A DNA stretch of 64,000 bases. It comes from Bacteroidia bacterium. GTDB taxonomy: Bacteria > Bacteroidota > Bacteroidia > Bacteroidales > Paludibacteraceae. Of this stretch, positions 10,045-64,000 are shown one piece after another (position 1 is the first letter of the stretch; every line of letters starts with the position of its first letter). The notes under the pieces were generated by a model. That model was not told the origin of the DNA and made no database searches. It was given only the letters and a program-made list of their open reading frames with translations. The position numbers and the translations under genes were made by a program. Location of the stretch: positions 13,885 to 77,884 of the forward strand of contig SAAL01000001.1 of NCBI GenBank assembly GCA_009929445.1, written 5' to 3'.

Positions 10045-10136
10045 CAAACTAATTGAAAGTTTTAATTTGAATTAACTGCAATTTTCATATTAGAAAAGAT
10101 GACATTTTGTCAAATCGCAAAAATATGTTAATAAAG

Positions 10137-19636: not shown

Positions 19637-19721
19637 GCCCCCCAACCCCATAAAGGGGGAGTTTTGGGCTGGTTAATATATAATTTCTATAAGAAATAAT
19701 TCCCCTTTAGGGGTTAGGGGC
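19637..19721. repeat. Inverted pair of GC-rich repeat units
   Basis: The left unit is 19637-19661, GCCCCCCAACCCCATAAAGGGGGAG. The right unit is 19700-19721, TTCCCCTTTAGGGGTTAGGGGC. The right unit ends 4 nt before the folB ATG. Confidence 0.8.
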
Positions 19722-24279: not shown

Positions 24280-27200
24280 TTAGTATTCTCCCCAATGCTT
24301 AATTTCAATATCTTCTTTCTTCAGTTTACAGAAAGCTTTAATAAATGCACTTGCCAAACGGGCATTGGTAATGAGTGGAATATTGAAATCTATTGCCCCC
24401 CGGCGGATTTTATATCCGTTTGTCAATTCCCGTTCCGTCAGATTTTTAGGAATATTGATTACCAAATCTACATTTTTGTTTGCTATAATATCTGTTACCT
24501 TCAAATCGCCTTCTTCGTCGGGCCAGCCCACATATGTACTATTTACACCGTTTTCTTCCAGAAATTTCTGAGTACCACCCGTGGCAAACAAATTATACCC
24601 GTGTAGTACCAGCAGGCGACAGGCATCCAGCAGATCCACCTTCGATTTGGCGCTTCCGGATGAAACAACAATATTTTTCTCCGGAATGCGATAACCCACC
24701 GATAGCATGGCGGTGAGCAATGCATCGTCAAAATGAGTTCCGATGCAACCCACTTCGCCAGTAGAAGCCATATCCACACCCAACACCGGATCTGCTTTCT
24801 GCAGGCGGGTGAACGAGAACTGTGAAGCCTTAATACCTACATAGTCCAGATCGAAAGCAGATTTCTCCGGTTTTTTTACCTCATAACCGAGCATTACCTG
24901 TGTAGCCAGCTCAATGAAATTGATTTTCAAAACCTTGGAAACAAACGGGAATGAACGGGAAGCCCTCAGGTTGCATTCTATTACCTTAATATCGTTGTCT
25001 TTAGCTAAAAACTGGATATTAAACGGTCCGAATATATGAAGTTCTCTGGCTATTTCGCGGGCAATTTTCTTGATACGCCGTACTGTCTGTGTGTAGATTT
25101 TCTGCGGAGGAAACTGTATGGTGGCATCTCCGGAATGAACTCCGGCGTATTCCACATGTTCGGAAATAGCGTAAACCACCAATTCTCCGTTTTGTGCAAC
25201 AGCGTCAATTTCAATCTCCTTGGCTCCTTCGATAAATTCAGAAACCACCACCGGATGCTCTTTTGACACTTCTGTAGCCAGTGTGAGAAATCGTTCAAGC
25301 TCGCTTCTGTTCGAACAAACATTCATTGCTGCACCCGAAAGCACATACGAAGGACGCACCAGTAACGGAAATCCGACTTCATCCACAAACTGATGAATAT
25401 CTTCCAGCGTGCTCAGTTCTTTCCACCTGGGTTGGTCGATGCCCAGCCGATCAAGCATCGACGAAAATTTATGGCGATCTTCAGCATTATCGATGTCAGC
25501 AGCCTGAGTTCCGAGAATGTTTACTCCGGATTGGCTCAATCGTACTGCCAGATTATTAGGAATTTGTCCGCCGGTTGAAACAATCACTCCTTTCGGATTT
25601 TCCAGTTCTATAATGTCCAGTACACGTTCGTAACTTAGTTCATCGAAATACAGGCGGTCGCACATATCGTAATCAGTCGACACCGTTTCGGGATTGTAAT
25701 TAATCATCACCGACCGCAAACCTTCCTTACGAATGGTATTCAGAGCGTTCACCGAACACCAGTCGAATTCCACCGACGAACCGATGCGGTATGCACCCGA
25801 GCCAAGCACAATGGCTGAAACAGCCTCCCCAAGCCCCTCCAAAGGAGGGGATGTAAGAGGTGAGTTGTTGATGTTTTGAGTTTCATGATGCATCGTCCGC
25901 ACTAATTCTCCCCCTTTTGGGGAATTAGTGGGGGTGTCATTGGCTACTCCATTGTAAGTCAGGTACAAATAATTGGTCTGAGCCGGATATTCAGCTGCGA
26001 GTGTATCAATCTGCTTAACCACAGGCACAATTCCCCGTTTGATGCGTTCGTTGCGTATGGTGTCTTTCGGCATTGGTTTTTTGTAAATCAGTTTTTCAAT
26101 CTGATAATCCGAAAATCCGATTTTTTTTGCTTTGGAGAACAGTGCTGTGGGCAGATGTTCTTTGTCCGCACATTTCTCAATCAGGTGCGCTGTGTCAATG
26201 ATGTTTTTAAGTTTGTATAGAAACCAGCGGTCAATTTTTGTCAGATCGTAAATCCTGTTCACTGTATAGCCCTGCTCGAATGCCTGCGAAAGATAGAAAA
26301 CACGTTTATCGGTAGGTGTACTCAGTTCATTGTCGAGTTCGCTGGTGTACAATTCTTTATTTCCGACAAATCCGTGCATGCCCTGCTGTATCATCCGAAG
26401 TCCTTTTTGAAAAGCTTCTTCAAAACTTCGTCCGATAGACATGATTTCGCCCACCGATTTCATCGAAGAACCTATTTCGCGGCTTACCCCATGAAATTTT
26501 GCCAGATCCCAGCGCGGTATTTTGCATACGATGTAATCAAGTGCCGGTTCGAAAAACGCGGAAGTTTCTTTTGTTACCGAATTTTTTAATTCGGGAAGTC
26601 CGTAACCCAGTCCAAGTTTGGCTGCCACAAAAGCCAGCGGATATCCGGTGGCTTTGGATGCCAGCGCTGATGAGCGGCTAAGCCGGGCATTTACTTCGAT
26701 AACGCGGTAGTCTTCAGAAAACGGATCGAAGGCATATTGTACATTACACTCGCCTACAATGCCAATGTGTCTGACAATACGTATAGCTATTTCACGGAGT
26801 TTGTAGTATTCGCTGTTGGAAAGTGTCTGTGATGGTGCTACTACTATACTTTCGCCGGTATGAATGCCCAGCGGATCGAAGTTTTCCATGTTACAAACCG
26901 TGATACAGTTGTCGTAACGGTCGCGTACCACTTCGTATTCAATTTCTTTCCAGCCTTTCAGCGATTTTTCGACCAGAACCTGTGGTGAATAATTGAAAGC
27001 CTTCGTGGCAAGCGTTCTCAGTTCGTCATCGTTGTCGCAAAAGCCGCTTCCGAGGCCGCCCAGGGCATAGGCTGCCCGGACTATTACCGGATAACCGAGT
27101 TCGTTGGCTGCACGTAAAGCCTCCTCCGTAGAGGTAACCGCTTCACTTTGAATGTATTTTACTCCTATTTCAGCGAGCTTTTGATTGAAAATCTCGCGGT

Positions 27201-28806
27201 CTTCGGTATCAATAATGGATTGTACCGGTGTACCGAGTACGCGTACGTTGTATTTCTCAAGTATTTTATTTTTGAATAATGCCACACCGCAATTCAGAGC
27301 CGTCTGACCGCCAAACGACAGAAAAATGCTGTCAGGACGTTCTTTTTCAATCACTTTTTCAACAAAATCTGGTGTAACCGGTAAAAAATAAACCTTATCG
27401 GCAATGCCTTCGGAAGTCTGCACGGTAGCGATGTTCGGATTGATCAATACGGTTTCAATGCCTTCTTCTTTCAGTGCTTTCAGTGCCTGCGATCCGGAAT
27501 AGTCAAATTCGCCGGCTTCGCCAATTTTGAGAGCTCCGGAGCCAAGCAGAAGTACTTTACGCACCTGGCCTCTCACTGATTCTCCCCAAAGGGGAGAGAA
27601 CCCGGGCGAAATAGAGTTTGTTGCGTTTTCGGGAGTGTCACTTTTTTTTCCTTTTGAAGAAAAATCAGATGAGGTTAAATATTCTTGAATGACAGTGTTA
27701 ACATTAATCGCAGTACTTTTTCCTCCTCCTTTGGAGGAGGTTAGGAGGAGGCTAAACACATCAAAAAGAAACTCCGTATCCGTTGGTCCGGCAGATGCTT
27801 CGGGATGAAACTGACAGGAGAACCACGGTTTGGTTTTGTGACGAATACCTTCGTTGGTGCCGTCGTTCAGATTTACAAAAAGCGGTTCCCAGTCAGCGCT
27901 CAACGTGTTGTTGTCCACCGCAAAACCATGATTTTGTGATGTAACGAATGCCCGCTGTGAACCTATCAGTTGTACTGGCTGATTGCAGCTGCGATGTCCG
28001 TACTTCAGTTTGTAAGTTTTGGCTCCCCCGGCCAGTGAAAGCAATTGGTTACCCATACATATGCCGAAGATGGGTTTGTTGGTTTCCATTGATTTGCGGA
28101 TATTGTCCACAGTGATATCACAGTATGCCGGATCGCCCGGCCCGTTTGAAATAAACAATCCATCGTATTCAATTGTATTGAAATCGTAATCCCAGGGTAC
28201 TCTTATCACCGTTGTATCACGTTTCAGCAGACAGCGGATGATGTTGTTTTTCACCCCGCAATCCACCAGAACAACTTTATTATTGCCATTTCCATAGGTG
28301 ATTACTTCTTTGCAGCTTGCCTTTGCCACCTGATTCTCGTCATCGGGATTGACAAACGGGATGTCCGGCTGATCCGGGAAAACCAGTTTTCCGAGCATTG
28401 TTCCTTTTTCTCTGACCAGTTTGGTCAGTTCACGCGTGTCGATGCCGTAAACGGCCGGAACCTTGTTTTCTTTCAGCCAGTCACTCAGGCTTTTTACAGC
28501 ATTCCAATGGCTGTATTCAAATGAAAAGTCGGAAACGATCAGACCGCTTGCCTGTATTTTTTCCGACTCAAAAAAAGCAGAAATACCGTTTTGAACTTCC
28601 TCTTTCGGAACTCCGTAATTCCCGATGAGTGGATAAGTAAGAGTTAAAATCTGACCAAGGTAAGAAGGGTCGGAAAGGCTTTCGGTATAGCCGACCATTC
28701 CTGTGCTGAAAACCACTTCGCCGGCTGCAGGTGCTTCGTAACCAAAAGATTTCCCTTCGAATACTGTACCGTCTTCGAGAATTAATTGTAATGGCTTGTT
28801 GTACAT
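24280..28806 (-). CDS. carAB: carbamoyl-phosphate synthase, small and large subunits fused in one ORF
   Basis: 1508-aa uninterrupted ORF. Residues ~1-350 are CarA (GICMGNQ, QFHPEAS). Residues ~414-1508 are CarB (LLLGSGALKIGEAGEFDYSG, two ATP-grasp halves, MGS-like tail). Residues ~351-413 are encoded entirely by a repeat pair. A second pair adds ~37 aa near CarB residue ~545. Confidence 0.9.
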   Translation of the reverse strand: MYNKPLQLILEDGTVFEGKSFGYEAPAAGEVVFSTGMVGYTESLSDPSYLGQILTLTYPLIGNYGVPKEEVQNGISAFFESEKIQASGLIVSDFSFEYSHWNAVKSLSDWLKENKVPAVYGIDTRELTKLVREKGTMLGKLVFPDQPDIPFVNPDDENQVAKASCKEVITYGNGNNKVVLVDCGVKNNIIRCLLKRDTTVIRVPWDYDFNTIEYDGLFISNGPGDPAYCDITVDNIRKSMETNKPIFGICMGNQLLSLAGGAKTYKLKYGHRSCNQPVQLIGSQRAFVTSQNHGFAVDNNTLSADWEPLFVNLNDGTNEGIRHKTKPWFSCQFHPEASAGPTDTEFLFDVFSLLLTSSKGGGKSTAINVNTVIQEYLTSSDFSSKGKKSDTPENATNSISPGFSPLWGESVRGQVRKVLLLGSGALKIGEAGEFDYSGSQALKALKEEGIETVLINPNIATVQTSEGIADKVYFLPVTPDFVEKVIEKERPDSIFLSFGGQTALNCGVALFKNKILEKYNVRVLGTPVQSIIDTEDREIFNQKLAEIGVKYIQSEAVTSTEEALRAANELGYPVIVRAAYALGGLGSGFCDNDDELRTLATKAFNYSPQVLVEKSLKGWKEIEYEVVRDRYDNCITVCNMENFDPLGIHTGESIVVAPSQTLSNSEYYKLREIAIRIVRHIGIVGECNVQYAFDPFSEDYRVIEVNARLSRSSALASKATGYPLAFVAAKLGLGYGLPELKNSVTKETSAFFEPALDYIVCKIPRWDLAKFHGVSREIGSSMKSVGEIMSIGRSFEEAFQKGLRMIQQGMHGFVGNKELYTSELDNELSTPTDKRVFYLSQAFEQGYTVNRIYDLTKIDRWFLYKLKNIIDTAHLIEKCADKEHLPTALFSKAKKIGFSDYQIEKLIYKKPMPKDTIRNERIKRGIVPVVKQIDTLAAEYPAQTNYLYLTYNGVANDTPTNSPKGGELVRTMHHETQNINNSPLTSPPLEGLGEAVSAIVLGSGAYRIGSSVEFDWCSVNALNTIRKEGLRSVMINYNPETVSTDYDMCDRLYFDELSYERVLDIIELENPKGVIVSTGGQIPNNLAVRLSQSGVNILGTQAADIDNAEDRHKFSSMLDRLGIDQPRWKELSTLEDIHQFVDEVGFPLLVRPSYVLSGAAMNVCSNRSELERFLTLATEVSKEHPVVVSEFIEGAKEIEIDAVAQNGELVVYAISEHVEYAGVHSGDATIQFPPQKIYTQTVRRIKKIAREIARELHIFGPFNIQFLAKDNDIKVIECNLRASRSFPFVSKVLKINFIELATQVMLGYEVKKPEKSAFDLDYVGIKASQFSFTRLQKADPVLGVDMASTGEVGCIGTHFDDALLTAMLSVGYRIPEKNIVVSSGSAKSKVDLLDACRLLVLHGYNLFATGGTQKFLEENGVNSTYVGWPDEEGDLKVTDIIANKNVDLVINIPKNLTERELTNGYKIRRGAIDFNIPLITNARLASAFIKAFCKLKKEDIEIKHWGEY
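25823..25934. repeat. Inverted pair of GC-rich repeat units inside carB, in frame
   Basis: The first unit is 25823-25852, GCCTCCCCAAGCCCCTCCAAAGGAGGGGAT. The second unit is 25905-25934, AATTCTCCCCCTTTTGGGGAATTAGTGGGGG. Together they are translated as TNSPKGGELVRTMHHETQNINNSPLTSPPLEGLGEAVS. Confidence 0.8.
27568..27752. repeat. Inverted pair of GC-rich repeat units forming the carA-carB linker, in frame
   Basis: The first unit is 27568-27600, GCCTCTCACTGATTCTCCCCAAAGGGGAGAGAA. The second unit is 27721-27752, TCCTCCTCCTTTGGAGGAGGTTAGGAGGAGGC. The two units are translated as SSKGGGKS and SPLWGESVRGQ, separated by the interior-encoded residues. Confidence 0.8.
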
Positions 28807-48855: not shown

Positions 48856-49005
48856 GGCCCCCCGGCCCCCTGAAGGGGGAGTTGTTGAGCATTAATACAA
48901 AGTTAATACGCAATTAGAATGTTCATTTTAAAGACACTTTTATAAAACTATATATCTTCAATATATGCTCTGTGAGCCCCCCCCTGAGGGGGATTTAGGG
49001 GGGCC
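48856..49005. repeat. Inverted pair of GC-rich repeat units between cysK and metY
   Basis: The left unit is 48856-48881, GGCCCCCCGGCCCCCTGAAGGGGGAG. The right unit is 48976-49005, GCCCCCCCCTGAGGGGGATTTAGGGGGGCC. Confidence 0.8.
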
Positions 49006-52062: not shown

Positions 52063-52202
52063 GCCCCCCAACCCCCTAAAGGGGGAGTTTAGGTGCAATA
52101 TATTATATTTTGAAAAAATGAATGTTGCAGTTTTATTACTACATCAATAAATATTATAATTTTTCATACCCTCCAATATTCCCCCTTCAGGGGGTTGGGG
52201 GC
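52063..52202. repeat. Inverted pair of GC-rich repeat units between the pdxH start and the DUF3267 gene end
   Basis: The left unit is 52063-52087, GCCCCCCAACCCCCTAAAGGGGGAG. The right unit is 52178-52202, TTCCCCCTTCAGGGGGTTGGGGGCC. Confidence 0.85.
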
Positions 52203-52833
52203 CGGTAGCTTTTCTCTTATAAAAATACGTTTTCCCTTCTTTTTTTACATCGAAGGTGTAAATTTCATCGTCTTTCTGGTTTTCGAAAAAGCACAGCAGT
52301 CCAAAATCACCTCCGCAAAACAATCCGTGAAGTCCGAACAGGATCATGAAAAAATAATACAGCGGCTGTCCGTAAAAGAAAATGGCTCCTGCAAGCGATA
52401 CAAAACCAACTACAACAGCCGGAGCAAGTGCTACGAACATGAACTGTTTGTAATTCAATACTTTTTTGTCGGCTTGTACATAAAACATGAATTTTCTCAG
52501 GTTCATCCCGAACGAAAGTTTTTTTGCCCCGACCAGCAGGTATGCAATGGCATGCAGCAGTTCGTGCAGGACAATCAGAACAGTAAATGAGAACAGAACA
52601 CCCATTCCCAACCCTTCGAGCGACGCGGTATCACGCCGTGTCATGTACGGAGCAAACGCCTTTATCAATGCGAAACCGACAAGCAGAAGCCCTATGCCCT
52701 GATACATCTTGGCTATCAGCCCCCAACCCTGATTTCCTGCAATTTCACGGCGGAGAAATGGTTTGAGGTTCGAATGCTCAATTACCTCAATTTGTTCGAA
52801 AGAAGGATTGTTTAGAAGTTCTAAGTATTTCAT
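52144..52833 (-). CDS. DUF3267 membrane protein (putative zincin, HELLHA)
   Basis: 229-aa ORF with TM helices and LHELLHAIAY. The last ~20 codons (GPQPPEGGILEGMKNYNIY) come from a repeat unit plus element interior. Confidence 0.6.
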   Translation of the reverse strand: MKYLELLNNPSFEQIEVIEHSNLKPFLRREIAGNQGWGLIAKMYQGIGLLLVGFALIKAFAPYMTRRDTASLEGLGMGVLFSFTVLIVLHELLHAIAYLLVGAKKLSFGMNLRKFMFYVQADKKVLNYKQFMFVALAPAVVVGFVSLAGAIFFYGQPLYYFFMILFGLHGLFCGGDFGLLCFFENQKDDEIYTFDVKKEGKTYFYKRKATGPQPPEGGILEGMKNYNIY

Positions 52834-52880
52834 TGTAATCGTGTTTCGAAAAATATTAAATGATCCTCACGGAATCTTAA

Positions 52881-52946
52881 AGTCCCCCAAGGGGGACCTG
52901 CCTGCCGCCCCGACAGGTCGGGATAAACCAGGCAGGTTTAGGGGGC
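52881..52946 (-). repeat. GC-rich repeat unit with a nested extra hairpin, solo
   Basis: AGTCCCCCAAGGGGGAC + CTGCCTGCCGCCCCGACAGGTCGGGATAAACCAGGCAG + GTTTAGGGGGC. It lies between the DUF3267 gene start and the PNP gene stop. Confidence 0.7.
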
Positions 52947-52949
52947 TTA

Positions 52950-53762
52950 TTATATCTCCGCCACCAGTTCCATCATAATTTTCGTCATCAGCGGTTGCGC
53001 GGCGTTGCCAATTTGCTGAACTTCTTCGTGCGAAACTTCCACAATTTTTCCTTCCACTCCCAGATCGGTGATGATGGACATCCCAAAAACTTTCATTCCT
53101 GCATGGTTGGCTACAATTACTTCAGGAACAGTACTCATTCCAACTGCATCACCGCCAATGATTTTAAAGTATTTATACTCAGCCGGCGTTTCGAAAGTTG
53201 GTCCCTGAGTGCCCACATACACGCCTTCCACTACCCGGATGTTGTTGCGTTTGGCAATGGCTTTTGCTTTAGCGATGAATTCACGGTTGTAGGCTTCGCT
53301 CATATCGGGGAAGCGTACGCCGAGCTCCTTGTAATTTTTTCCGTGCAGCGGATGTTCCGGGAAGACATTGATGTGGTCGGTAATTATCATCAGATCACCG
53401 ATTTCAAAGTCGGCATTCATGCCTCCGGCGGCATTCGAAACCATCAGATTTTCAATTCCCAATGCTTTCATTACACGTACCGGAAATGTTACCTGTTTCA
53501 TGTCGTATCCTTCATAGTAATGGAAACGTCCCTGCATGGCAAGCACATCAACATCACCGAGTTTTCCGAAGATGAGTTTTCCGCTGTGACCTTCAACGGT
53601 CGATACCGGGAAATTCGGGATGTTTTCGTACGGAATTTCCTGTTTGTCGGTTATTTGTGTCACTAAATTGCCCAGGCCGGTTCCCAGAATAATGCCGGTT
53701 TTGGGAAGTACTTGTACCTTTGATTTGATAAAATCAGCGGTTTCCTGAATTTTTGCTAACAT
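52950..53762 (-). CDS. purine nucleoside phosphorylase (trimeric PNP family)
   Basis: 270-aa ORF with [30 protein letters not shown] and VGMSTVPE. Confidence 0.9.
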
Positions 53763-54810
53763 AATCTTGAATTTTTTGGATAAATTTATCTTGTTCGTTG
53801 TTTGATATTTTCACTTCTAAAGGCATTGCATAGAGGTTTTTCTTTAGCTTTTCAGTGAGATATGGATTTGACTTTAAGCGCGCTGCGTCCTTCTCGGTAG
53901 TAAGAATTATTTTGAATCCAGTCATTTTTTCAAATTCTTTTTCAATATCGTTCAGTTCATTTTTTGAAAAATCATGATGATCCGGAAAAAATTTTGTCGT
54001 GATTTTCGTGGTGAAATTCTTCAGATAATTCAGCAAGGGAGTTGGGCTCACAATGCCTGTAACCAGCAAAATGGCCATTCCCTCCGCTGTTTTTTCTAAT
54101 GACAAGTTTTTACCTTCCGAAAAAACCGGATAAATATTTCCGTACTCAAACCTGGAGAAAAACAACTGCTGATGTGTTGCCGGGTTTAATTTTCGCTCAA
54201 TTTTGCTGAATTCCTCGAGTTGGATTTCATCGGGACATTTTGTTACCACGATGATATCCGCCCGGTTGCTGTTATTTTTATGCTCGCGCAGGTTGCCATA
54301 AGGCAGTATAAAATCATCTGCATACAATGCGGAGTAATCGGTCAGTAAAACGGACAGTCCGGCTTTTACATGACGGTGCTGATACGCGTCATCGAGTATA
54401 ATCGCTTTAATTTCAGGGCATTGCTCCATGAGCCGTCCGATTCCCCGCACACGTTTTTCGTCCACTGCTACTGTCACCTCCGGAAATTTGCTGAAAATCT
54501 GAAATGACTCGTCGCCTATGGTTTTGGCGGTGCTTTCTTTTCCGGCAAGAACAAAACCCTTTGTCGCACGTTTGTATCCGCGGCTTAATACAGCAATCTT
54601 AATGTTTTTGCTTAATTGTTGTATAATAAATTCAGTGTGCGGCGTTTTTCCTGTGCCCCCCACTGCCAGATTTCCAATGCTGATAACCGGTATCTCAAAT
54701 GATTTTGATTTCAGAATACCGCGGTCAAACATTCGGTTTCGAATTTCAGTGACTATTCCATAAAGGAACGAAAAAATATTAAAAACGATATTTTTATCCG
54801 GTTTTACCAT
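53734..54810 (-). CDS. lpxK: tetraacyldisaccharide 4'-kinase
   Basis: 358-aa ORF with [12 protein letters not shown]. It has a 29-nt overlap with the PNP gene start. Confidence 0.85.
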
Positions 54811-54931
54811 TGTATCTACAAAGATAAAAAATGTTTTCGTATTTTGAACGAGGTATAGGGTGGTGAGAACTGAGTTTTCTGAAATTCAGTTTTATAAGTT
54901 CGCAGATTGGATTTTCGGCTTGATACAAATA

Positions 54932-54964
54932 GAAAGGTATCGCAAACATGCTGCGATACCTTTC
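54932..54964 (-). terminator. Hairpin downstream of sppA (putative terminator)
   Basis: GAAAGGTATCGCA aacatgc TGCGATACCTTTC, a 13-bp stem. Confidence 0.5.
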
Positions 54965-54989
54965 TTTGAATGATTTTCAAGTCTCCGTA

Positions 54990-56753
54990 TTAGTTCAGCG
55001 TGATATTCACGGGCATCAGTGCCTGAATTCCGTTGAAGTATTTGGCTTGTTCAATTTGTTTGAGCAGTCGGTAGTTTTCGTCTCCGAGCCTGGATTTCAG
55101 TATTTTGGTTTCTACCGTGGAGTTCATGTCTTTGAACAGACGAGTCATGATATCTTCTTTGGCGGGGAATTCTTTTACCATGTAATTTTCCAGTTTTGCT
55201 TTTCCGGCGGCTATTTTTATGGCATCGCCGAGTCCTCCGAGTTTGTCCACCAATCCTATTCTCATTGCATCTTCACCGGTCCATACACGCCCTTCGGCAA
55301 TGGCTTTCAGCGAGTCGATATTCATTCCGCGGCCGTCGGCACAGCGCTTTGTGAAGAGCTCATAACCACGGTTGATGTAACTTTGCATCAGATTACGCTC
55401 ATCGGGTGTGAATGAGCGGTTCAGAGAGATGGCATCGCTCATTTTGTTCGTTTTCACCCCGTCGTGTGTCAGACCGATTTTTTTGTTCAGTCCTTCAATA
55501 TTCGGAATGGTTCCGAAAATTCCTATCGAACCGGTCAGTGTATTTGGCTGTGCAATGATGCTGTCGGCAGCGCACGAGATGTAGTAACCGCCCGAAGCTG
55601 CATAGTCGCCCATAGAAACGATTACCGGTTTCACTTTTTTCAGTTCGGTAATCGCGTGCCATATTTGTTCCGATCCGTAAGCACTGCCGCCCGGTGAATT
55701 TACCCGGAAAACCACGGCTTTGACAGATTTTTCATCTTTCACTTCGTTGATGGTTTCTACCAGGTCTTCGGAAGTAATTTCGTCAGTCTGACCCATGTCA
55801 ATGCCTCCCACGCCGTAGATAACTGCAACTTTTTGTTTTTGCATTTTTTCAGAGTGAGGTACTTTGTTCATATCGGAGTGCGAAATAAAATGAATGTCCT
55901 TGAAATCTTCCTGTTTTGTGAGTTTTTTGAATACTTCATTCATGCCATCGGAATACACAAGCGAGTCAACCAGCTTATTTTTCAGTGCCATTTCGGTTGG
56001 TTGAAAAGTCATCATAGCATCGGCGTACCTGTTGAGCGAGTCCACGGGGATGTTGCGCGATTGAGAAATTTCTGTCAGCACATTTTTCCAGATGGAGTTG
56101 ATAAAAACGGTTACCTGCTCCTTGTTGGCTTCACTCATTTTGGTGTCAATGTAAGGCTCTACGGCAGATTTGTAGGTTCCCACTTTTACTATTTGCATTT
56201 CCACACCTAATTTATCGAGCGTATTTTTGAAGAAAGTGGTGTTGGCAGCAATTCCCTGAAACTCAAGCATTCCCTGCGTGTTCAGATACACTTTGTCGGC
56301 TATGGAAGAGAGGTAGTAGTTTTTCTGACTGTATGTATCGGCGTAAGCCACAATAAACTTACCCGATTGCCTGAAATCGGCCAAAGCGTCACGTATTTCC
56401 TTGACAGAGGCATAGCCACCTGTCAGCATGCCGCCTTTGAGATATATTCCCTTTATGTTTTCATCGGCTTTCGCTTTGCGGATGTTGGCCAGCACATCAT
56501 CCAGCCCGATGATTTTAGCTGCGTCCTGTCCGAATGCATTTGAGAAAATCTCGGTGAACGGATCGTCTTTTGAACGTTCAATCAGCTGACCGTTCAACTC
56601 AAGTTCATAAACAGAATTAGGCTGTATTTTTACAACTTTTTCTGCAGAACCGGCTATAGCTCCGATTATTCCAAACATCAATAGCATTCCGATAACGGAT
56701 GTAATGATAATGCCAACAATTGTGGCCAGAGTAAATTTAAGAAATTGTTTCAT
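54990..56753 (-). CDS. sppA: signal peptide peptidase SppA, 67K type
   Basis: 587-aa ORF with an N-terminal TM helix and two S49 domains (SPGGSAYGSE, AASGGYYISCAADSI). Confidence 0.9.
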   Translation of the reverse strand: MKQFLKFTLATIVGIIITSVIGMLLMFGIIGAIAGSAEKVVKIQPNSVYELELNGQLIERSKDDPFTEIFSNAFGQDAAKIIGLDDVLANIRKAKADENIKGIYLKGGMLTGGYASVKEIRDALADFRQSGKFIVAYADTYSQKNYYLSSIADKVYLNTQGMLEFQGIAANTTFFKNTLDKLGVEMQIVKVGTYKSAVEPYIDTKMSEANKEQVTVFINSIWKNVLTEISQSRNIPVDSLNRYADAMMTFQPTEMALKNKLVDSLVYSDGMNEVFKKLTKQEDFKDIHFISHSDMNKVPHSEKMQKQKVAVIYGVGGIDMGQTDEITSEDLVETINEVKDEKSVKAVVFRVNSPGGSAYGSEQIWHAITELKKVKPVIVSMGDYAASGGYYISCAADSIIAQPNTLTGSIGIFGTIPNIEGLNKKIGLTHDGVKTNKMSDAISLNRSFTPDERNLMQSYINRGYELFTKRCADGRGMNIDSLKAIAEGRVWTGEDAMRIGLVDKLGGLGDAIKIAAGKAKLENYMVKEFPAKEDIMTRLFKDMNSTVETKILKSRLGDENYRLLKQIEQAKYFNGIQALMPVNITLN

Positions 56754-56850
56754 AGGTTTTGTGTTTCAATAATTGATGGTGCAAAGAAACGAAAAAAAAG
56801 GGAAATTAAGTTGTTTAGTAACAAATATCAACCGAAAAACATTGATTTTC

Positions 56851-57147
56851 TCAGAGATGCGACAGGAGTGTTCTCAGAAGTGTTTGTTTGTCGGTTCCGC
56901 CGGGTTGCCTCCACACGATTTGGCCGTTTTTGAAAATGACAAATGTAGGTACAGCCTGAATCTGGTATTTGGCAGCCAGCAGCTGATTTTTATCCACATC
57001 TATTTTCAGTACACGTGCTTTGCCCTGCACTTCTTTGCCCACTTGCTCTATGATGGGCGACATGGCTTTGCACGGACCGCACCAGGTAGCGTAAAAGTCT
57101 ATCAGAACGGGTTTCCCGGAATTAATTATATCGTTGAATGTTTCCAT
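56851..57147 (-). CDS. trxA: thioredoxin
   Basis: 98-aa ORF with the WCGPCK active site. Confidence 0.9.
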   Translation of the reverse strand: METFNDIINSGKPVLIDFYATWCGPCKAMSPIIEQVGKEVQGKARVLKIDVDKNQLLAAKYQIQAVPTFVIFKNGQIVWRQPGGTDKQTLLRTLLSHL

Positions 57148-57160
57148 GAAAGTATGATAT

Positions 57161-57194
57161 AAGAAAAAGGGAAGACGAACTTTCCGTCCTCCCT
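57161..57194 (-). terminator. Intrinsic terminator after the hsp20 gene
   Basis: Stem AGGGAAGACG / CGTCCTCCCT pairs at 9 of 10 positions. On the minus strand it is followed by TTTTCTT. Confidence 0.6.
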
Positions 57195-57213
57195 TTAACA
57201 GTTAGAAATTCAG

Positions 57214-57648
57214 TTACTTAATCTCAATAGCCCGTGGAGCTTTCGGTTTGGCTTCTTCTTTTTTCGGAATTGAAACAGTCAGAATACCTTTGTCGTATAC
57301 GGCTTCCACTTTGTCGCCATCAGCGGTAAGTGGTAAACTGAACGAACGGCTGAACGACTGATAGCTGAACTCGCGTTTTGTGTAACGTTCGCTTTCGTCT
57401 TTGGTTTCGTTTTCAGTTTGTTTTTCAGACGAAACCGTCAGCACATCGTTGTGAACTTCAATTTTGAAGTCAGTTTTATCAAATCCCGGTGCAGCTACTT
57501 CAATGCTGAATTCGTTGTCACTTTCTTTCACATTTACCGAAGGTAATGTTGTGTTTGTTCTGGAATAGTTTTTTGAAGTCCAGTCGAATAAATCGGTGTC
57601 GAAAAAACGGTCAATCAACGGATTGCCTGTAAATCTTACGAGTGTCAT
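57214..57648 (-). CDS. Hsp20/alpha-crystallin small heat-shock protein
   Basis: 144-aa ORF with an alpha-crystallin domain (FSIEVAAPGFDKTDFKIEV ... GILTVSIPK). Confidence 0.9.
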   Translation of the reverse strand: MTLVRFTGNPLIDRFFDTDLFDWTSKNYSRTNTTLPSVNVKESDNEFSIEVAAPGFDKTDFKIEVHNDVLTVSSEKQTENETKDESERYTKREFSYQSFSRSFSLPLTADGDKVEAVYDKGILTVSIPKKEEAKPKAPRAIEIK

Positions 57649-57854
57649 AGTTGTTTTCCTTTCTTATTTTTTAGTTTGTTTAATGATTTGTTTTTTTTGT
57701 CTTACGACCTCATTAATACAAATAAAATACCAACAGGAAAAAACTGACAAAATGGCATGTTTGAAAACGAATATTATTATTCCAAATAGTTAAACGCTGT
57801 TTCCAATGCCGAGGATCCCTTTTGTGAGTATGACAAAATGACCGATATATTTTT

Positions 57855-59522
57855 TTAATACGTAAAACTGCTACCGCCTACAAATTCGCGCAGGAGCGAT
57901 GTGGGTGGAATTTCGCTGTCGTTGATGGCTACAAAGTAACGCAAAAACCGCAGCAACCGGTGAGTTTCGGTATATTCATCGCAATATTTCGGCACTTGTT
58001 CCAGGATGGGCATTACGTGACGTTTTAGCACGGCAAGTTCAAAAATCAGTGCCGAGTTGAACATGATGTCGGCATTTTCCTGGAAAGGGAAAATCCATTT
58101 GTCCTCTCCTTTACGCACGCTGCTCCATCGTCCGATGGTATCGCGGGCTGAGTATCCGCGGTAATGGTAGTCGCGGATGATGCGTCTCAGCAAACGGGTG
58201 TCGGCTGTGGGTATCCAGTTGTGTTCGTCGATGGAAATGGTGGTGAGTGCCGATACGTATATTTTGAACAAAGCTTCCGGCGGAATGCTTTTGGTGAGTT
58301 CCGGATTGAGTGCATGGATGCCCTCCAGGATGAGGAGCGTATCTTTTTCCAGTTTCAGCTTTTCGCCTTTGAAATATCGTTTTCCGCTTTCGAAGTTAAA
58401 AAACGGCAGTTCGATTTCTTCTCCGGCAATTAATTGCTGCATCTGGAGGTGAAAAAAATCGAGGTCGAGTGCATAGAGCGATTCAAAGTCCCAGTCGCCG
58501 TTTTCATCGCGGGGAGTAGCTTCTCGATCCACAAAGTAATTGTCGAGCGATATGCTTTTGGGTATGAGTCCGCTCACCATCAGCTGCACGGACAATCGTT
58601 TGCTGAAAGTGGTTTTACCCGACGATGAAGGCCCCGAAATCAGTATGACTTTCACCTCGGGCCGGGCTTGTATCATATCGGCTATCGATGCTACTTTTTT
58701 CTCGTGCAGCGCTTCGGCAATTTTTATCAAATCAAAAGCACGGTTATCCAGGCAGGCTTTATTGAATGCGCCGACTGAATTAAGCCCCATAATTTTATTC
58801 CAGCTCAGAAACTCTTTGAAAATCTCAAACATTTTCGGTTGTTGCACCATTTCCTCGAGGTCAACCGGATTTTCTCTGTCGGGTACCTGCAGCAGCATTC
58901 CGTCGTAGTAGGGTATCAGGTTGAACACATCCAGATATCCGGTAGAGGGCAGCAGGATGCTTGTGTAATAATCGATGAATTTTCCGATGCGGTAATAGCG
59001 CAGGTAGGGCTCAGCCAGGCTGTCGAAAAGCGAATCTTTCGAAGTGTTGTTGTTGCCGTTTCGGAATAATTCCTTTACTTGTTCGGTTTGTTTTTCTTCC
59101 AGAATCACAGGTTCATTGCTGTTAATGATTTCCTGCATTTTCGTTTTTATACTGTTAACGACTTCCGAAGTAACCGGTTGATCTGAATTTTCAAAGTTAC
59201 AATAATATCCTTTGGAGATGGGGTGCTCAATCCGGATAACTGAATGTGGAAAAAGCTCCGAAACTGCTTTTGAAAGCACCATAGAGAGTGTTCGAACGTA
59301 AACACGCATGCCCGATGAAGTGCCGCTGTCGATAAATTCAATGTCTTTCGGTTTGTAGATTAAAAAATTCAGGTCTTCTACCTTGTAATTTACCCGGGCA
59401 GCAACCACTTTGTATTTTAGCGTGATATTCAGCGAATTGTATATTTCAAGCAATGATGTGCCCAATGGGAAGGAATGGTAATCCTGCGTGTTTTTGCAAT
59501 AGATGACGACGGTTTTTTTCAT
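57855..59522 (-). CDS. nucleoside/uridine kinase-family protein with an N-terminal TGS-like domain
   Basis: I prefer ATG 59522 (MKKTVVIYCKN...). It has the P-loop GPSSSGKTT and a PRK/uridine-kinase-like C-half. Confidence 0.65.
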   Translation of the reverse strand: MKKTVVIYCKNTQDYHSFPLGTSLLEIYNSLNITLKYKVVAARVNYKVEDLNFLIYKPKDIEFIDSGTSSGMRVYVRTLSMVLSKAVSELFPHSVIRIEHPISKGYYCNFENSDQPVTSEVVNSIKTKMQEIINSNEPVILEEKQTEQVKELFRNGNNNTSKDSLFDSLAEPYLRYYRIGKFIDYYTSILLPSTGYLDVFNLIPYYDGMLLQVPDRENPVDLEEMVQQPKMFEIFKEFLSWNKIMGLNSVGAFNKACLDNRAFDLIKIAEALHEKKVASIADMIQARPEVKVILISGPSSSGKTTFSKRLSVQLMVSGLIPKSISLDNYFVDREATPRDENGDWDFESLYALDLDFFHLQMQQLIAGEEIELPFFNFESGKRYFKGEKLKLEKDTLLILEGIHALNPELTKSIPPEALFKIYVSALTTISIDEHNWIPTADTRLLRRIIRDYHYRGYSARDTIGRWSSVRKGEDKWIFPFQENADIMFNSALIFELAVLKRHVMPILEQVPKYCDEYTETHRLLRFLRYFVAINDSEIPPTSLLREFVGGSSFTY

Positions 59523-59668
59523 AAAAAAAAAGTGATTTGTTTTTTCGAATCCGACTGTCTGTGAATCGTTCGGTTGAGTTTCGTTTTTGCACATAATAAT
59601 AATTCCACCACAAAGTTAGTGGAATTATTATAAAAAGAGTTGATCCTGGAAGTCAATTACTTTTTTTG

Positions 59669-60961
59669 CTATTTATCCAGCTGTTTTTTGATTTTGTTGA
59701 TAGCGTTTTCGATGGATTTATCGGGTTCAATTATGTTGTATTCTCCCCAAAACTCGGGATCCGAAAATCCCGATGCTTCATTTTGAATCACTACAGTAGG
59801 ATTAATTCGGTCTTTGGAGCGGAAAGTTCTTCTGTCCATATCGTCCGACCAATCGGTGGCAGCCATTTCGATGATTGAATTGTAATAGGTGTTTAAAAGC
59901 CGTTTTCTCCAGTCAATTTTCAATCCCAGATCAATGCGGCTGTAAGAGTAATACCATAAATCGTCCATTAACCGGTATTCAATCAGATAGTGTGCCTTGT
60001 AGGTGCTCACTTTGGCGTTGAGCGGTTTTTTGCGCACAAATATCCGGGTAGCTTCATCGTTGTTTGTCAGGTCCATGTCAAATTCGGCCCTTGCCAGTGC
60101 GTAAGTTTCGGCATCAATATACAGCTGGCCGTAAAACAAAGGTTCCACAATGTGTCTGAGTTGTTTGAAGTCAATCACATAAACAATACGATCGTTTATC
60201 TGGTCTGTTTTGAGGAACTTAAATTCATAATTTTCAAAAATATTTTCCGAAAAAATATAATCCGGATAACGCATTACATCCAGATAGATATTATTGAAAG
60301 GCCCTCCCATCAGTTTGAAAACCAACGTATCGAGTTTATTGTAATCAGTGCTTTTGCGGGATTTATACAGTGATGCCATATCGTGCAGGCTGCTGTTGTA
60401 AGCCCGTTTGTACACTTCGGTAATGGCTTCCGAAAGTGATACGTTCGTGTTTCTCTTTTTGATAATCTCACGGTAGAATGCCGTCATCATCATGTCTTTG
60501 TTGCTGTAATTCTTGTCCTTGTTTTCCATCATTTTCCGGATGATTGACTCCGGGTCTTTTGATATGACTTCAAGCGGTGGAAGTGTAAACTGGAGTGGCC
60601 TCATCGAGTATTTGTTTCCACGAGGCATCATTGCTGCCAGCGGAATACGCAGATTTTCGTACCCGAGAAATGAAACCAGTACGTTTTTGTCCATTTCTGA
60701 TTTTGGTACTTTGAGCAAAAACTCACCATCCGCATTGGTTACGGTAGAGATATTTGTTTTCTCAACCGAAAGCACTGCGTAAGGCATTTTGTCGCCTTTT
60801 TCACCTGTAATTACACCTGAAAATACATTTATAGCAGTATCCTGCAACTGTGAAAATGGTTTATTTTCAGCTTTTAGGGCCTGATATCCGATAAAAAAAA
60901 CAAACAGAACGCAGTATGTTTTCGCGAGATTTGTCATTTGAATTGATCGAATTGATTTCAT
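59669..60961 (-). CDS. carboxypeptidase-regulatory-like domain protein (secreted)
   Basis: 430-aa ORF with a signal peptide and GVITGEKGDKMPYAVLSVEKTNISTVTNADGEFLLKVP, typical of CarboxypepD_reg. Confidence 0.5.
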   Translation of the reverse strand: MKSIRSIQMTNLAKTYCVLFVFFIGYQALKAENKPFSQLQDTAINVFSGVITGEKGDKMPYAVLSVEKTNISTVTNADGEFLLKVPKSEMDKNVLVSFLGYENLRIPLAAMMPRGNKYSMRPLQFTLPPLEVISKDPESIIRKMMENKDKNYSNKDMMMTAFYREIIKKRNTNVSLSEAITEVYKRAYNSSLHDMASLYKSRKSTDYNKLDTLVFKLMGGPFNNIYLDVMRYPDYIFSENIFENYEFKFLKTDQINDRIVYVIDFKQLRHIVEPLFYGQLYIDAETYALARAEFDMDLTNNDEATRIFVRKKPLNAKVSTYKAHYLIEYRLMDDLWYYSYSRIDLGLKIDWRKRLLNTYYNSIIEMAATDWSDDMDRRTFRSKDRINPTVVIQNEASGFSDPEFWGEYNIIEPDKSIENAINKIKKQLDK

Positions 60962-61064
60962 GATTGTGTATTTTGTTAAAAAAGTCAGATTAAAGTTGTT
61001 TTTTTTATTTGTAAAATTTCATTCCATAATACAAAACAAACATACGGATAAAATGTTGAAAGTA

Positions 61065-61790
61065 TTATTCCCAAAGTTTATGAAGCACCTCCACCGAGTG
61101 AAGTGTTTGAAAATCAGGCAGGTGAATTTTGTAATATTCAATGAAATAATTCAGCATCTCACCCCTTTGTTTTCTTGTCATGGGCAGTTGGCTCAGCATG
61201 CTGTAATCCATCATCGTTAGTTTTCTGAAAACATCCCCTGTTTCGGGTATCAGATAATGTGTGTGAGCCGGTTTGCTATATTCAAAAACACCGTTCAACA
61301 GATCAAAGTACTGAGCAGTTGGAGCTTCTGTTGTATCGGGTAAAAATCCAAGCCGCCCGGCAAGCTGCGCCATGAAAACCAGGTGAAAATTGCCCACGCC
61401 CTCATCACATTCATCCAGCCTGCAGACCGACGATTCGATGAAAAAGTACAAATTTTCGTCACATTCCGAATGTTTCAGCGTTTTTTGCAGCAATTCAGTC
61501 ATAAACAGCGCCAGCCCATTCTTCACCGGATCATACGGAATGTGATAAAAAGGAATGGCTATCCGCATATCCTTAATGGTCTGAATATCCTTCTTCGGAT
61601 TGTGAGATACATCAATTTCCACGATAGAAAGCGGTTGAAGCAGAGCCGAACGAGTGGCTGATTTCTTCCGGTTCGCACCACGCACCATATAGGACATTCG
61701 CCCGAATTCCCGCGTATAAATACTAACAATGCTCTGACTGTCCGAGTATTTTACTTGATGAAGTATGATGCCTGTGGTTTTTGCCTGCAT
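61065..61790 (-). CDS. recO: DNA repair protein RecO
   Basis: 241-aa ORF. N-terminal OB-fold pattern GIILHQVKYSDSQSIVSIYTREFGRMSYMVRG. Confidence 0.75.
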   Translation of the reverse strand: MQAKTTGIILHQVKYSDSQSIVSIYTREFGRMSYMVRGANRKKSATRSALLQPLSIVEIDVSHNPKKDIQTIKDMRIAIPFYHIPYDPVKNGLALFMTELLQKTLKHSECDENLYFFIESSVCRLDECDEGVGNFHLVFMAQLAGRLGFLPDTTEAPTAQYFDLLNGVFEYSKPAHTHYLIPETGDVFRKLTMMDYSMLSQLPMTRKQRGEMLNYFIEYYKIHLPDFQTLHSVEVLHKLWE

Positions 61791-61876
61791 AGTTCTATTC
61801 TTTCACAAATTTAATGAATTAAGCTGACAATACTTATTCTTTCCAATTTAAATTTCTATAAAAAATTCATTTTCAC

Positions 61877-61884
61877 TATCTTTG
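61877..61884 (+). promoter_or_regulatory. -7 box (TAnnTTTG) for valS
   Basis: TATCTTTG, 121 nt upstream of ATG 62005. This implies a long, repeat-rich leader. Confidence 0.4.
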
Positions 61885-61893
61885 CGCTTTTAA

Positions 61894-61921
61894 AAATCAG
61901 AAATCAGAAATCAGAAATCAG
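61894..61921 (+). repeat. Tandem 7-bp repeat (AAATCAG x4) in the valS leader
   Basis: aaatcag aaatcag aaatcag aaatcag, then aatttctga, which completes the palindrome TCAGAAAT/ATTTCTGA. Confidence 0.8.
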
Positions 61922-62004
61922 AATTTCTGAAAGAATAAACTGTGATTGTAAAATTCTGATTTACAATTCACTACAAACTATTAACTGCTTACTATAAACT
62001 AAAC

Positions 62005-64000
62005 ATGGAACTTTCAAGCAAATACAATCCCGCAGAGGTAGAAGACAAATGGTATCAATACTGGTTAGACAATGGATTTTTCCATTCTGAGCCTGACGAA
62101 CGCGAACCTTACACCATCGTCATCCCACCGCCCAATGTTACGGGAGTACTGCACATGGGTCACATGCTCAACAATACCATTCAGGATGTGCTCGTTCGCC
62201 GCGCCCGAATGCAGGGCAAAAACGCCTGCTGGGTTCCCGGTACCGACCACGCTTCCATTGCCACCGAAGCAAAAGTTGTGGCTCGTCTGGCTGAAAAAGG
62301 GATCAAAAAAACCGACCTTTCTCGCGATGAGTTTTTGAAACACGCCTGGGACTGGACACACGAACACGGCGGAATTATCCTGGAACAGCTGAAAAAACTC
62401 GGCGCCTCCTGCGACTGGGAACGCACAGCCTTCACGATGGACGAAATTCGTTCTGAAAGCGTGATTAAAGTTTTCTGCGATTTGCACGAAAAAGGCTTGA
62501 TTTACCGTGGTGTACGGATGGTTAACTGGGATCCAAAAGCACTTACAGCCATTTCCGACGAAGAAGTTATTCACAAAGAAGTGAATGGAAAGTTGTACTA
62601 TTTGCGTTATAAAATTGTAGAAAGCCCCTCCACCCCCCAAGAGGGGGATTCTGGTAGCTACGGCTATCAGACTTCGAAAAGTGGAAGTTACGAATTACTA
62701 AAAGAAAACGCTAAAGTAATGCGTAGCTTTTCAACAGATGCTGAAAGTGCACTTTGGCAAATGCTTCGTGGGAAAAATTTAGGTGATAAATTCAGAAGAC
62801 AACACATCGTAGGTGAGTATATTGTTGATTTTGTATGTTTGACTAAAAAATTGATTGTTGAAGTTGATGGAAAATATCATGATACTCCTGAAATGCAAGA
62901 GGCTGATAATTTCAGAACAAATTATCTGAATTCATTGGGTTTTAATGTGATTCGTTTTACAAATGAAGAGGTAATTGGAGATACTGAAAGTGTGCTCAAT
63001 AAGATTGAAAACGCACTTCAAATCCCCCCTTCGGGGGGTGGGGGGGCTTTTGTTGTCATTGCAACTACGCGTCCCGAAACGATAATGGGCGACACGGCTA
63101 TGTGTATTCACCCTGAAAACCCGAAAACGGCACATTTGAAAGGTAAAAGAGTGATTGTTCCGCTTATCAACCGTGTAATTCCTGTGATTGAAGATGAGTA
63201 CGTGGATATGGAATTTGGAACGGGATGCCTGAAAGTTACTCCGGCGCACGATGTGAACGACTACGTATTGGGCGAAAAATACAACCTGCCTTCCATCGAT
63301 ATTTTCAATGAAGACGGCACGCTCAACGAGCACGGAGCGATGTATGCCGGAATGGATCGTTTTGAGGTTCGCAGGAAAATAGTGAAAGACCTGGAAGAAG
63401 CCGGACTCATGGAAAAAATCGAAGATTACACCAACAAAGTGGGTTATTCCGAACGTACCGATGTGCCTATCGAGCCCAAACTTTCGATGCAGTGGTTTCT
63501 GAAAATGAGCGATTTAGCTAAGCCGGCACTTGATAATGTGGAAAACGACACGGTGAAATTTCACCCCGAAAAATACAAAAACACCTACCGCTACTGGATG
63601 GAAAACATCAAAGACTGGAACATCAGCCGTCAACTTTGGTGGGGACATCGCATCCCGGCGTGGTATGTAGCCCCCTCTAACTCCCCCGCAGGGGGAGAAA
63701 TTCCCGAAGATTTTCCCGTACAAGGAAATCAATACGTAGTGGCCGAGAATGAAGAAAAAGCGCGTGAAATCGCACTTTTGAAGTTTCCCTCTCTGGGAGG
63801 TTTCAGGGGAGGCTTTTCACTACGACAGGACGAGGATTGCCTCGACACCTGGTTCTCATCCTGGCTATGGCCTATTTCTGTTTTTGATGGAATAAAGAAT
63901 CCGGAGAATAAAGATATCAGGTATTATTATCCGACTAACGATTTGGTTACAGCACCCGAAATTTTGTTTTTCTGGGTGGCACGTATGATTATTGCCGGGT
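62005..64000 (+). CDS. valS: valine-tRNA ligase (5' part; continues beyond the window) carrying four in-frame repeat units and a DUF559 module
   Basis: Hand translation from ATG 62005 is open to position 64000. It gives [33 protein letters not shown] (HIGH motif), [37 protein letters not shown] and [10 protein letters not shown]. It is absent from the ORF track because it lacks a stop in the window. Confidence 0.95.
62624..63047 (+). mobile_element. Inverted-repeat-bounded cassette (~423 nt) carrying the DUF559 module, inserted in frame in valS
   Basis: The left unit is 62624-62649, GCCCCTCCACCCCCCAAGAGGGGGAT. The right unit is 63022-63047, whose reverse complement is GCCCCCCCACCCCCCGAAGGGGGGAT. 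By hand count the core is ~33% GC (62701-63000) against ~55% in 62161-62220. Boundaries are +/-2 nt. Confidence 0.75.
62689..63018 (+). other. DUF559 / Vsr-like PD-(D/E)xK nuclease module translated in frame inside valS
   Basis: [110 protein letters not shown] matches the DUF559 pattern as I recall it (LW..LR...G.KFRRQ..IG.YI.DF.C...KL.IE.DG..H ... G..V.RF.N.EV). There is an internal ATG at 62719 and no own stop codon. Confidence 0.8.
63670..63697 (+). repeat. GC-rich repeat unit inside valS, in frame
   Basis: GCCCCCTCTAACTCCCCCGCAGGGGGAG, translated as [10 protein letters not shown], right after GHRIPAWYV. Confidence 0.8.
63787..63813 (-). repeat. Degenerate GC-rich repeat unit inside valS, in frame
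   Basis: CCCTCTCTGGGAGGTTTCAGGGGAGGC, translated as PSLGGFRGG, just before [10 protein letters not shown]. It resembles the unit at 24249-24277. Confidence 0.6.

Follow-up and report, generated by a model that had tools for sequence, protein, structure and literature searches.

Among the described systems closest to the element reported here is the REPtron, in which a small gene for an HUH/Y1 tyrosine transposase lies between inverted copies of a short GC-rich palindrome (repetitive extragenic palindrome, REP). These palindromes carry a GTAG or CGTC tag and are also scattered as single copies or inverted pairs, usually shortly downstream of a gene and occasionally within one. Rickettsia palindromic elements (RPEs) and intragenic REPs, themselves non-coding and without a linked enzyme, lie in frame in functional genes and are translated as an extra surface peptide. 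The GC clusters or double-hairpin elements of fungal mitochondria are GC-rich palindromic mobile units in an AT-richer background, sometimes in frame in protein genes and near endonuclease open reading frames (ORFs). Miniature inverted-repeat transposable elements, or MITEs, derived from insertion sequences (IS) have short AT-rich cores between terminal inverted repeats common with a longer coding element. Homing endonuclease genes of inteins and group I introns occupy conserved sites of essential genes and are patchy among close relatives, and one Vsr-like nuclease, I-Bth0305I, is a proven homing endonuclease with an N-terminal DNA-binding domain (PMC3239194). The element analysed here occupies 62624–63047 of a 64,000-nt stretch of contig SAAL01000001.1 (13,885–77,884; below, the window, to which coordinates refer unless another contig is named). 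It lies in valS, the gene for valyl-tRNA synthetase (ValRS), and consists of a DUF559 nuclease gene between inverted, hairpin-forming arms.

As in a REPtron, a small enzyme gene is flanked by inverted copies of a dispersed palindromic repeat, and the dispersed copies have a similar distribution around genes. However, the sole domain between the arms is DUF559, a Vsr-like PD-(D/E)xK nuclease, and no IS200/IS605-like HUH tyrosine transposase is present, which rules out a REPtron proper. In addition, the arm hairpins are built of C-runs and G-runs and lack a GTAG or CGTC tag, the enzyme gene is often in frame in host proteins, and the host phylum is Bacteroidota. A first-pass annotation of this DNA had likened the arrangement to that of REPs and their RAYT (REP-associated tyrosine transposase) and to in-frame Rickettsia RPEs. 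Both parallels are apt as analogies and neither denotes membership, the first for want of an HUH transposase. Unlike RPEs and REPs, the element contains a complete folded nuclease domain; the solo palindromic units of the window are the closer analogues of RPEs. The element resembles EDxHD/Vsr-like homing endonucleases in fold, and the homing endonuclease genes of inteins and group I introns in its sites (aminoacyl-tRNA synthetases, RecG, MetH) and its patchy occurrence in near relatives, but it has no N-terminal NUMOD/helix-turn-helix region and is accompanied by structured inverted arms and ORF-less derivatives. There is no Hint domain or intron RNA, so no splicing is expected and the nuclease would stay in the mature host protein. 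An IS-derived MITE or DDE transposon is also ruled out: inverted arms are present, but they contain internal hairpins, six elements show no target-site duplication, and no transposase domain was found. Fungal GC clusters are organellar, have unrelated sequences and form no defined arm-nuclease-arm unit. No description of an arm-DUF559-arm element was found in the searchable literature. By analogy, the element may work like a cross of a REPtron and an intein-free homing endonuclease gene.

We consider it likely that 62624–63047 is one copy of a Bacteroidota-wide family of small selfish elements, in which a nuclease gene between inverted arms is translated as part of the host protein, here ValRS, and the nuclease may act on the arms. 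The + strand frame of valS is free of stop codons from the ATG at 62005 to the window end at 64000. NCBIfam valine–tRNA ligase models match the ORF at 765 bits in two stretches around the insert, and Pfam finds tRNA-synt_1 plus PF04480 (DUF559). The insert comprises 424 nt, adds 142 in-frame codons and has no start or stop codon of its own. It is located in the turn that joins the strand KLYYLRYKI to the strand (Y/F)xVVATTRPET, the latter running into the ValRS CP1 editing domain. The GC content is 31–38% in the insert core and 50–57% in flanking valS. The locus is composed of the following parts.

62005–62623, + strand: 5' part of valS, ValRS residues 1–206, the Rossmann-fold half with the HMGH motif, ending at the loop after KLYYLRYKI (translation, NCBIfam, orthologue alignment).
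62624–62649, + strand: left arm, from the inverted-repeat search, with terminal run GCCCCTCC, spacer A and hairpin CCCCC-CAAGA-GGGGG, encoding SPSTPQEGD.
62650–62688, + strand: N-terminal lead of the nuclease, resembling the N-terminus of free-standing homologues (M..YQTA..), without a start codon (alignment).
62689–63018, + strand: DUF559/Vsr-like PD-(D/E)xK nuclease core, 110 codons (PF04480, PDB, Foldseek, conservation).
63022–63047, + strand: right arm, with hairpin CCCCCC-TTC-GGGGGG, spacer T and terminal run GGGGGGGC, encoding IPPSGGGGA; the element ends at 63047.
63048–64000, + strand: valS resumes, here entering the CP1 editing domain, and continues past the window end.

By family and predicted fold, the insert is a DUF559 (PF04480)/Vsr-like PD-(D/E)xK nuclease domain. 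PF04480 matches ValRS residues 232–338 with E = 3.7e-35 and 120.5 bits (cut-off 20.6), covering profile positions 3–108 of 109. In sequence, the module matches the DUF559 protein of PDB entry 3HRL (E = 1e-30) and the catalytic domain of I-Bth0305I in 3R3P (E = 1e-6). The AlphaFold2 model of the module has a core with predicted local distance difference test (pLDDT) scores of 87–94, and the arm-encoded residues 1–17 and 139–142 are disordered (pLDDT < 50). Foldseek aligned the predicted module to 3HRL and 3R3P with template modelling (TM) scores of 0.85 and 0.75, respectively, and 1VSR was also among the matches. A model of the ValRS fragment with the insert is poor in its host part (mean pLDDT 53.7) and was used only to see the insert fold, which forms (pLDDT ~88–93) between low-confidence linkers. 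Eighteen columns are invariant across 81 cores, including the acidic/His set D47, E58, D60, H64 and D73 (core numbering). The valS core keeps all family-invariant residues, these five as well as R89 and N92. The full-length profile match and the Vsr-like α/β fold with its conserved acidic/His site thus agree on membership of DUF559. Free-standing homologues of ~125 residues begin with M..YQTA..Y.LLKENA and stop just past the last helix; because the N-terminus and end match, the valS insert is equivalent to a complete nuclease gene from which the start and stop codons are missing. PADLOC gives a weak 'homing endonuclease' match to the module. These results bear out the first-pass annotation, which had read valS as open from 62005 to the window end and placed in it, just before the CP1 editing domain, an in-frame, stop-free segment with an AT-rich core in GC-richer surroundings, encoding a full-length DUF559 domain without a stop codon of its own.

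The segment had been presumed to be extra to ValRS, and relatives confirm this. ValRS orthologues up to 91% identical (P0121 and others) have no insert; the best 120 all have 643–915 residues, the full-length ones 870–915. At the junction, the window ValRS reads KIVE followed by the 142 additional residues, and orthologue P0121 reads KIEGEDGYAVVATTRPET. The syntenic contig L081 (recO-valS) has the empty loop at the DNA level, GAG GGA GAG GAT GGT. Remnants of an element are present at the valS site of other orthologues, namely GGTGGGGGGGCT in L083, of which 12 nt match the end of the right arm, and, in Petrimonas (L082), a solo hairpin. Contig L088, from another sample and a second strain of the species, is 97.6% identical over window 52953–62928 and has the identical left junction. 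An assembly chimera at 62624, a risk that the first-pass annotation had pointed out, is thereby ruled out. On one side L088 breaks off in the nuclease core and on the other in a MITE-like repeat, so that both of its ends lie in these repeats. Contig L084 carries the 3' 205 nt of the valS element, including the right arm, at another locus with 98% identity; the gene downstream, read from its translated N-terminus, we take to be an MFS-type transporter and not valS. The similarity ends exactly after ...GGGGC, which corresponds to window 63047, and the right element boundary is therefore placed there.

The family extends far beyond valS. A genome scan with one genome per species found 581 relatives, and the best 80 loci, to which the embedded-host and arm counts below refer, were analysed. 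The genome of the window itself does not figure among these 80, the best match standing at 68%. They span Bacteroidales, Marinilabiliales, Flavobacteriales, Chitinophagales and Sphingobacteriales, the orders being assigned from contig genus labels. The element measures ~410–520 bp, with a nuclease of ~125 residues, and long open frames enclose ~65 of the 80 loci. NCBIfam and Pfam identify the hosts as ValRS (12 loci), IleRS (17), LeuRS (5), MetRS (4), RecG (19) and MetH (4). Other hosts in the analysed loci are an alpha-xylosidase, MazG, WecB, a LegC-type aminotransferase, the CCA-adding enzyme, IspF and Gmk. An exhaustive search of representative proteins gave 24,960 matches at E <= 1e-3 and 10,033 at E <= 1e-10, and a good part of the best 150, judged by their lengths, are long proteins in which DUF559 is internal. 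This search added SpoIIE-type phosphatases, GT1 and GT2 glycosyltransferases, SpoIID, adenine deaminase, CinA, lipoate/biotin ligase, an Eco57I-type methylase and the MetH activation domain to the hosts. In total, more than 20 host proteins besides ValRS contain the module, and the same ValRS loop is occupied in at least 11 other taxa. The insert often divides the Pfam domain of its host into two parts.

Each host has one fixed insertion site beside a conserved motif. The site lies directly before TTR(P/A)(E/D)T in ValRS and LeuRS, at HYPFE|..|FPADFIAEGVDQTRGWF in IleRS, and at KLWxKG|..|PPHILVMTATPIPRT in RecG. The metagenome contig L086 (core 1111–1434) has a DUF559 insert before ...TTMPGWAGSSWYYLRYMD, unlike the pre-TTRxDT site of the other LeuRS loci; its host is presumably LeuRS, a reading taken from the flanking motifs alone. 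A Ferruginibacter MetRS (L056) contains two in-frame DUF559 elements, at 5085–5417 and 6309–6641, each with its own arms. Several DUF559 stretches also occur in P0241 (377 residues) and P0249 (1214 residues), with two or three each; P0249 is an Eco57I-type methylase with two. L087, from the sample of L088 and of similar coverage, encodes an IleRS with an in-frame DUF559 insert 54% identical to that of valS, and the window organism may thus carry a second embedded copy. A free-standing element (P0026; L091–L098) lies between rsmH and ftsL of the dcw cluster in all eight places listed, and is uninformative on recent transposition. The RsmH upstream of it is called at 424 residues and is split into 306 + 115 residues in one contig; we take 424 residues to be longer than expected for RsmH, which the element region may extend. 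Phage-borne spread is rejected, as a scan of viral contigs gave one close match (61%) and others of 29–50% identity.

Nearly all 80 loci, in-frame and free-standing alike, carry complementary inverted arms of one architecture. Read inward, the arm is composed of a terminal run (A)GCCCCYCC, an A-rich spacer of 1–3 nt (RAR), a pyrimidine stem of 5–9 nt, one of the loops AAA, GAA or CAA, and the complementary purine stem. In valS, the repeat search pairs 62621–62650 with 63021–63050 (30 nt, 87% complementary, 370 nt apart), in agreement with the inverted GC-rich 26-nt units that had been described around the core. The first-pass reading also depended on an association of such units with DUF559 genes elsewhere. 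This association is general: a perfect all-pyrimidine/purine hairpin of at least 5 bp is present in 134 of 162 arms flanking DUF559 cores and in 3 of 324 control segments taken from these loci. All of the more than 40 stem variants stay complementary and differ only by C-G to T-A exchanges, a covariation count that is inflated because the arms were pre-selected for perfect stems; the hairpin enrichment over controls is relied on instead. The arm reading frames are stop-free in ~86% of cases, compared with 72% for random window sequence (stops in 14% and 28%). Their peptides are Pro/Gly-rich, predicted disordered segments that probably act as linkers in the host protein. On the valS sense strand, the right-arm region 63026–63056 forms a GC-rich hairpin followed by CTTTTGTTGT, with a terminator-like score of which shuffled sequences give ~0.9 matches by chance. 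Such a hairpin could attenuate valS transcription.

The element appears not to be removed at the RNA or protein level, and its translation as part of ValRS is strongly supported, since a spliced insert would have no need to conserve the frame and its freedom from stops in ~65 copies, and features of an intron or intein are absent. An intein is ruled out on two grounds. First, Pfam shows only tRNA-synt families and DUF559/MTES_1575, with no Hint domain. Second, the junction residues are unfit, since the end of the insert, ...GGGGA|F, has neither a His-Asn nor a +1 nucleophile. A group I or II intron or another known RNA is ruled out by the conserved frame of the embedded copies and by the lack of any Rfam match at E <= 1 in 61800–64000. 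Stop codons are absent from 81 of 81 cores, and the dN/dS of embedded cores is 0.04–0.13. Judged from these codon comparisons, the embedded nuclease is under protein-level purifying selection and kept as an intact protein.

The window also contains copies of the arms without the nuclease. Five arm pairs surround AT-rich cores without an ORF, the arms and the sub-terminal 12 nt being conserved and the interiors variable. These pairs, the variable filler and the solo units of the window are listed below.

2001–2112: MITE-like copy, two arms and a short AT-rich core without an ORF.
14710–14836: MITE-like copy.
19637–19721: MITE-like copy, exactly filling the gap between two + strand ORFs.
48857–49004: MITE-like copy.
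52063–52202: MITE-like copy, inside which L088 breaks.
52817–52951: variable intergenic filler, ending in the arm terminus TTTAGGGGGC.
63670–63700, + strand: solo arm-type unit in frame in valS, GCCCCCTCTAACTCCCCCGCAGGGGGAG.
63786–63816: degenerate partner of the valS solo unit, in frame in valS on the other side of a host segment.
25897–25935, − strand: solo palindromic unit in frame in a 1508-residue ORF, peptide TPTNSPKGGELVRT.
~27571–27600, − strand: second in-frame unit in the 1508-residue ORF, peptide SPGFSPLWGESVRGQ.

Over 26 nt, the left arm of the copy at 52063–52202, GCCCCCCAACCCCCTAAAGGGGGAGT, shows no difference from that of a DUF559 element in a Paludibacteraceae IleRS (L053). Of 35 dispersed hairpins, 15 have a stem variant of the DUF559 arms in their own locus, compared with 6.6 ± 3.0 on permutation. 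Between identical flanks, the window has a filler of 135 nt at 52817–52951 and L088 a different MITE-like filler of 178 nt (9977–10154), in strains 97.6% identical; this looks like a site of element turnover. ValRS orthologues have variable versions at both sites of the solo unit at 63670–63700 and its partner at 63786–63816. The 1508-residue ORF (24280–28806, − strand), which from its N-terminal sequence alone we take to be a fused carbamoyl-phosphate synthase, has other pyrimidine/purine hairpins at 24250, 25834 and 27722, and one more lies just outside, at 24183. Three − strand ORFs (2083–2556, 14801–15553 and 52144–52833) read through the right arm of a MITE-like element, and their C-termini are therefore element-encoded. 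The first and third stop in the AT-rich MITE core, and 14801–15553 stops just inside the arm.

The proposed mechanism starts from what the data establish, namely arm-nuclease linkage, in-frame retention, purifying selection and ORF-less derivatives. In an embedded copy, the C- and G-runs of the arms would become disordered Pro/Gly-rich linkers, and the nuclease would fold on its own, as a domain that loops out from the synthetase. Nuclease supplied by in-frame as well as free-standing copies would act on the arms as hairpins or cruciforms. This action would promote the copying or movement of full elements, of core-less MITE-like pairs and of solo palindromes. Insertions may land widely; those within genes would survive when in frame, in sense orientation and in a permissive loop, and would then mostly be inherited vertically. 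One idea is that insertion favours G-/C-rich Gly/Pro codons, such as GAGGGAGAGGATGG in empty valS. Signs of mobility or turnover are the partial copy in L084, the remnants at the valS site of orthologues, the breaks of L088 in repeats, the arm identity with L053, the differing fillers of two strains and the excess of dispersed hairpins with the local stem variant. Whether the nuclease drives the spread of the family by acting on the arms, as RAYT does for REPs, a step that the first-pass annotation had rightly marked as inference, is in our judgement evenly balanced, and the comparison is one of analogy. The chance that the mobilisation mechanism is a new one is considerable. Tentatively, and with somewhat less than even confidence, we suggest that the family represents an undescribed class of prokaryotic mobile element, built on an arm-acting Vsr-like nuclease and for translation in essential genes without introns or inteins, in which embedded nucleases (valS, ileS, leuS, metG, recG) would spread hundreds of MITE-like and solo units in trans.

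Several observations weigh against an active, arm-directed nuclease. Nothing in the data shows cleavage, excision or integration, and translation of the insert is deduced from frame conservation. The module contains no separate DNA-binding domain like the N-terminal domain of I-Bth0305I. PD-(D/E)xK/Vsr nucleases hydrolyse DNA, and to our knowledge strand transfer by them has not been reported. On both counts the enzyme is an improbable transposase. Six element ends show neither a target-site duplication nor a common target motif, and the 64-kb window contains no second DUF559 gene. The valS units had been assigned at first pass to the repeat family scattered through the window; this stands for the architecture, which is common, and falls for the sequence, since valS and MITE arms are only ~73% identical (hand count). 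The exact 26-mer of the valS arm occurs once in the window (chance expectation 0), and no copy within 3 mismatches exists elsewhere in it. By sequence, the arms in valS and those of the window's MITE-like copies belong to different sub-variants. The history of the embedded copies points in the same direction. Inserts cluster mainly by host gene, and the RecG clade mirrors the taxonomy of Flavobacteriales. Host and insert identities are correlated (r = 0.72 for RecG, 0.46 for IleRS, 0.38 for ValRS), and the insert is at least as similar as the host flanks in 5 of 362 same-host pairs, none of them in ValRS. Because of this clustering and co-divergence, most in-frame copies look old, vertically inherited and not currently mobile. 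Furthermore, the purifying selection might show no more than that an insert in an essential enzyme must fold well. On the side of mobility, the inserts of different hosts group by taxon in Chitinophagales and Prevotella, which implies new insertions within these lineages.

A classical homing endonuclease gene, whose nuclease would cut the empty host site and whose element would be copied in by repair, with the arms irrelevant to mobility, is an improbable alternative. It would suit the kinship in fold and sequence to the catalytic domain of I-Bth0305I, a proven case (PMC3239194), the single, strongly conserved site in each host, with genes of the kind that often harbour inteins and homing endonucleases, and the clade formed by the ValRS inserts while the closest orthologues are empty. 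It does not predict the structured, co-varying arms, which are universal and also surround free-standing copies and ORF-less pairs at many unrelated sites. More than 20 unrelated host proteins would each demand a new target specificity, and the module comes without an extra DNA-binding domain. The same-site occupancy expected of homing is seen, yet host and insert co-diverge, and no near-identical inserts are common to distant hosts.

The arms could instead be REP-like units moved by another enzyme or by replication and repair, with DUF559 as passenger or cargo, such as a toxin or a nuclease for defence. For some REP families the lack of a dedicated transposase is reported (PMC3733652), solo units and ORF-less pairs far outnumber nuclease copies in the window, and the valS arms are unlike the MITE arms. 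This explanation is unlikely in view of the arm-DUF559-arm linkage, which holds across many families of the phylum with the arm sequence diverging along with the element, and of the frequency of the hairpin in arms and controls (134/162 and 3/324). Moreover, DUF559 is the sole gene found between arms, and the 98%-identical copy in L084 ends exactly at the arm terminus, so that arm and gene move as a unit.

Domestication, in which the insert now serves the host, for example as a nucleic-acid-binding or regulatory module of ValRS, is very unlikely. The low dN/dS, the intact catalytic residues and the long vertical retention, notably in RecG of Flavobacteriales, would be expected of a domesticated domain; the patchy distribution would not, with ValRS orthologues 91% identical lacking the insert and others holding remnants. 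The module is also found in more than 20 functionally unrelated proteins, and the arms are kept even where they merely code for linkers.

An artefact or non-translated feature (assembly chimera, programmed inversion switch, intron or intein) is scarcely credible given the independent L088 junction and the ~65 embedded copies that keep the frame without stops, and a switch, although inverted repeats flank the segment and 'DUF559 domain-containing protein' is enriched (odds ratio 14), without comment, among predicted programmed-inversion targets (PMC9881135), is ruled out because inverting the core puts multiple stop codons into essential valS. The arms that flank DUF559 genes would account for that enrichment.

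If the selfish-element interpretation is true, tolerance as a translated domain insertion would be a third way for selfish DNA to persist in essential genes, beside self-splicing introns and inteins. The strategy would be phylum-wide and would extend to four class I aminoacyl-tRNA synthetases, RecG, MetH and many other enzymes. The nuclease is a concrete candidate enzyme for REP/RPE-like in-frame palindromic repeats, related families of which have long lacked a known mobilising activity. The insertion sites map natural positions permissive for domain insertion in well-studied enzymes, which may be useful for protein engineering, and a compact nuclease, possibly structure- or sequence-specific, is a potential tool. 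In practice, the elements break metagenomic assemblies, inflate protein lengths and mimic programmed inversions or fusion proteins in annotation.

A further repeat lies directly upstream of valS, where the heptamer AAATCAG occurs four times in tandem (61894–61962). It has an imperfect inverted partner of 26 nt, 73% complementary and 10 nt apart.

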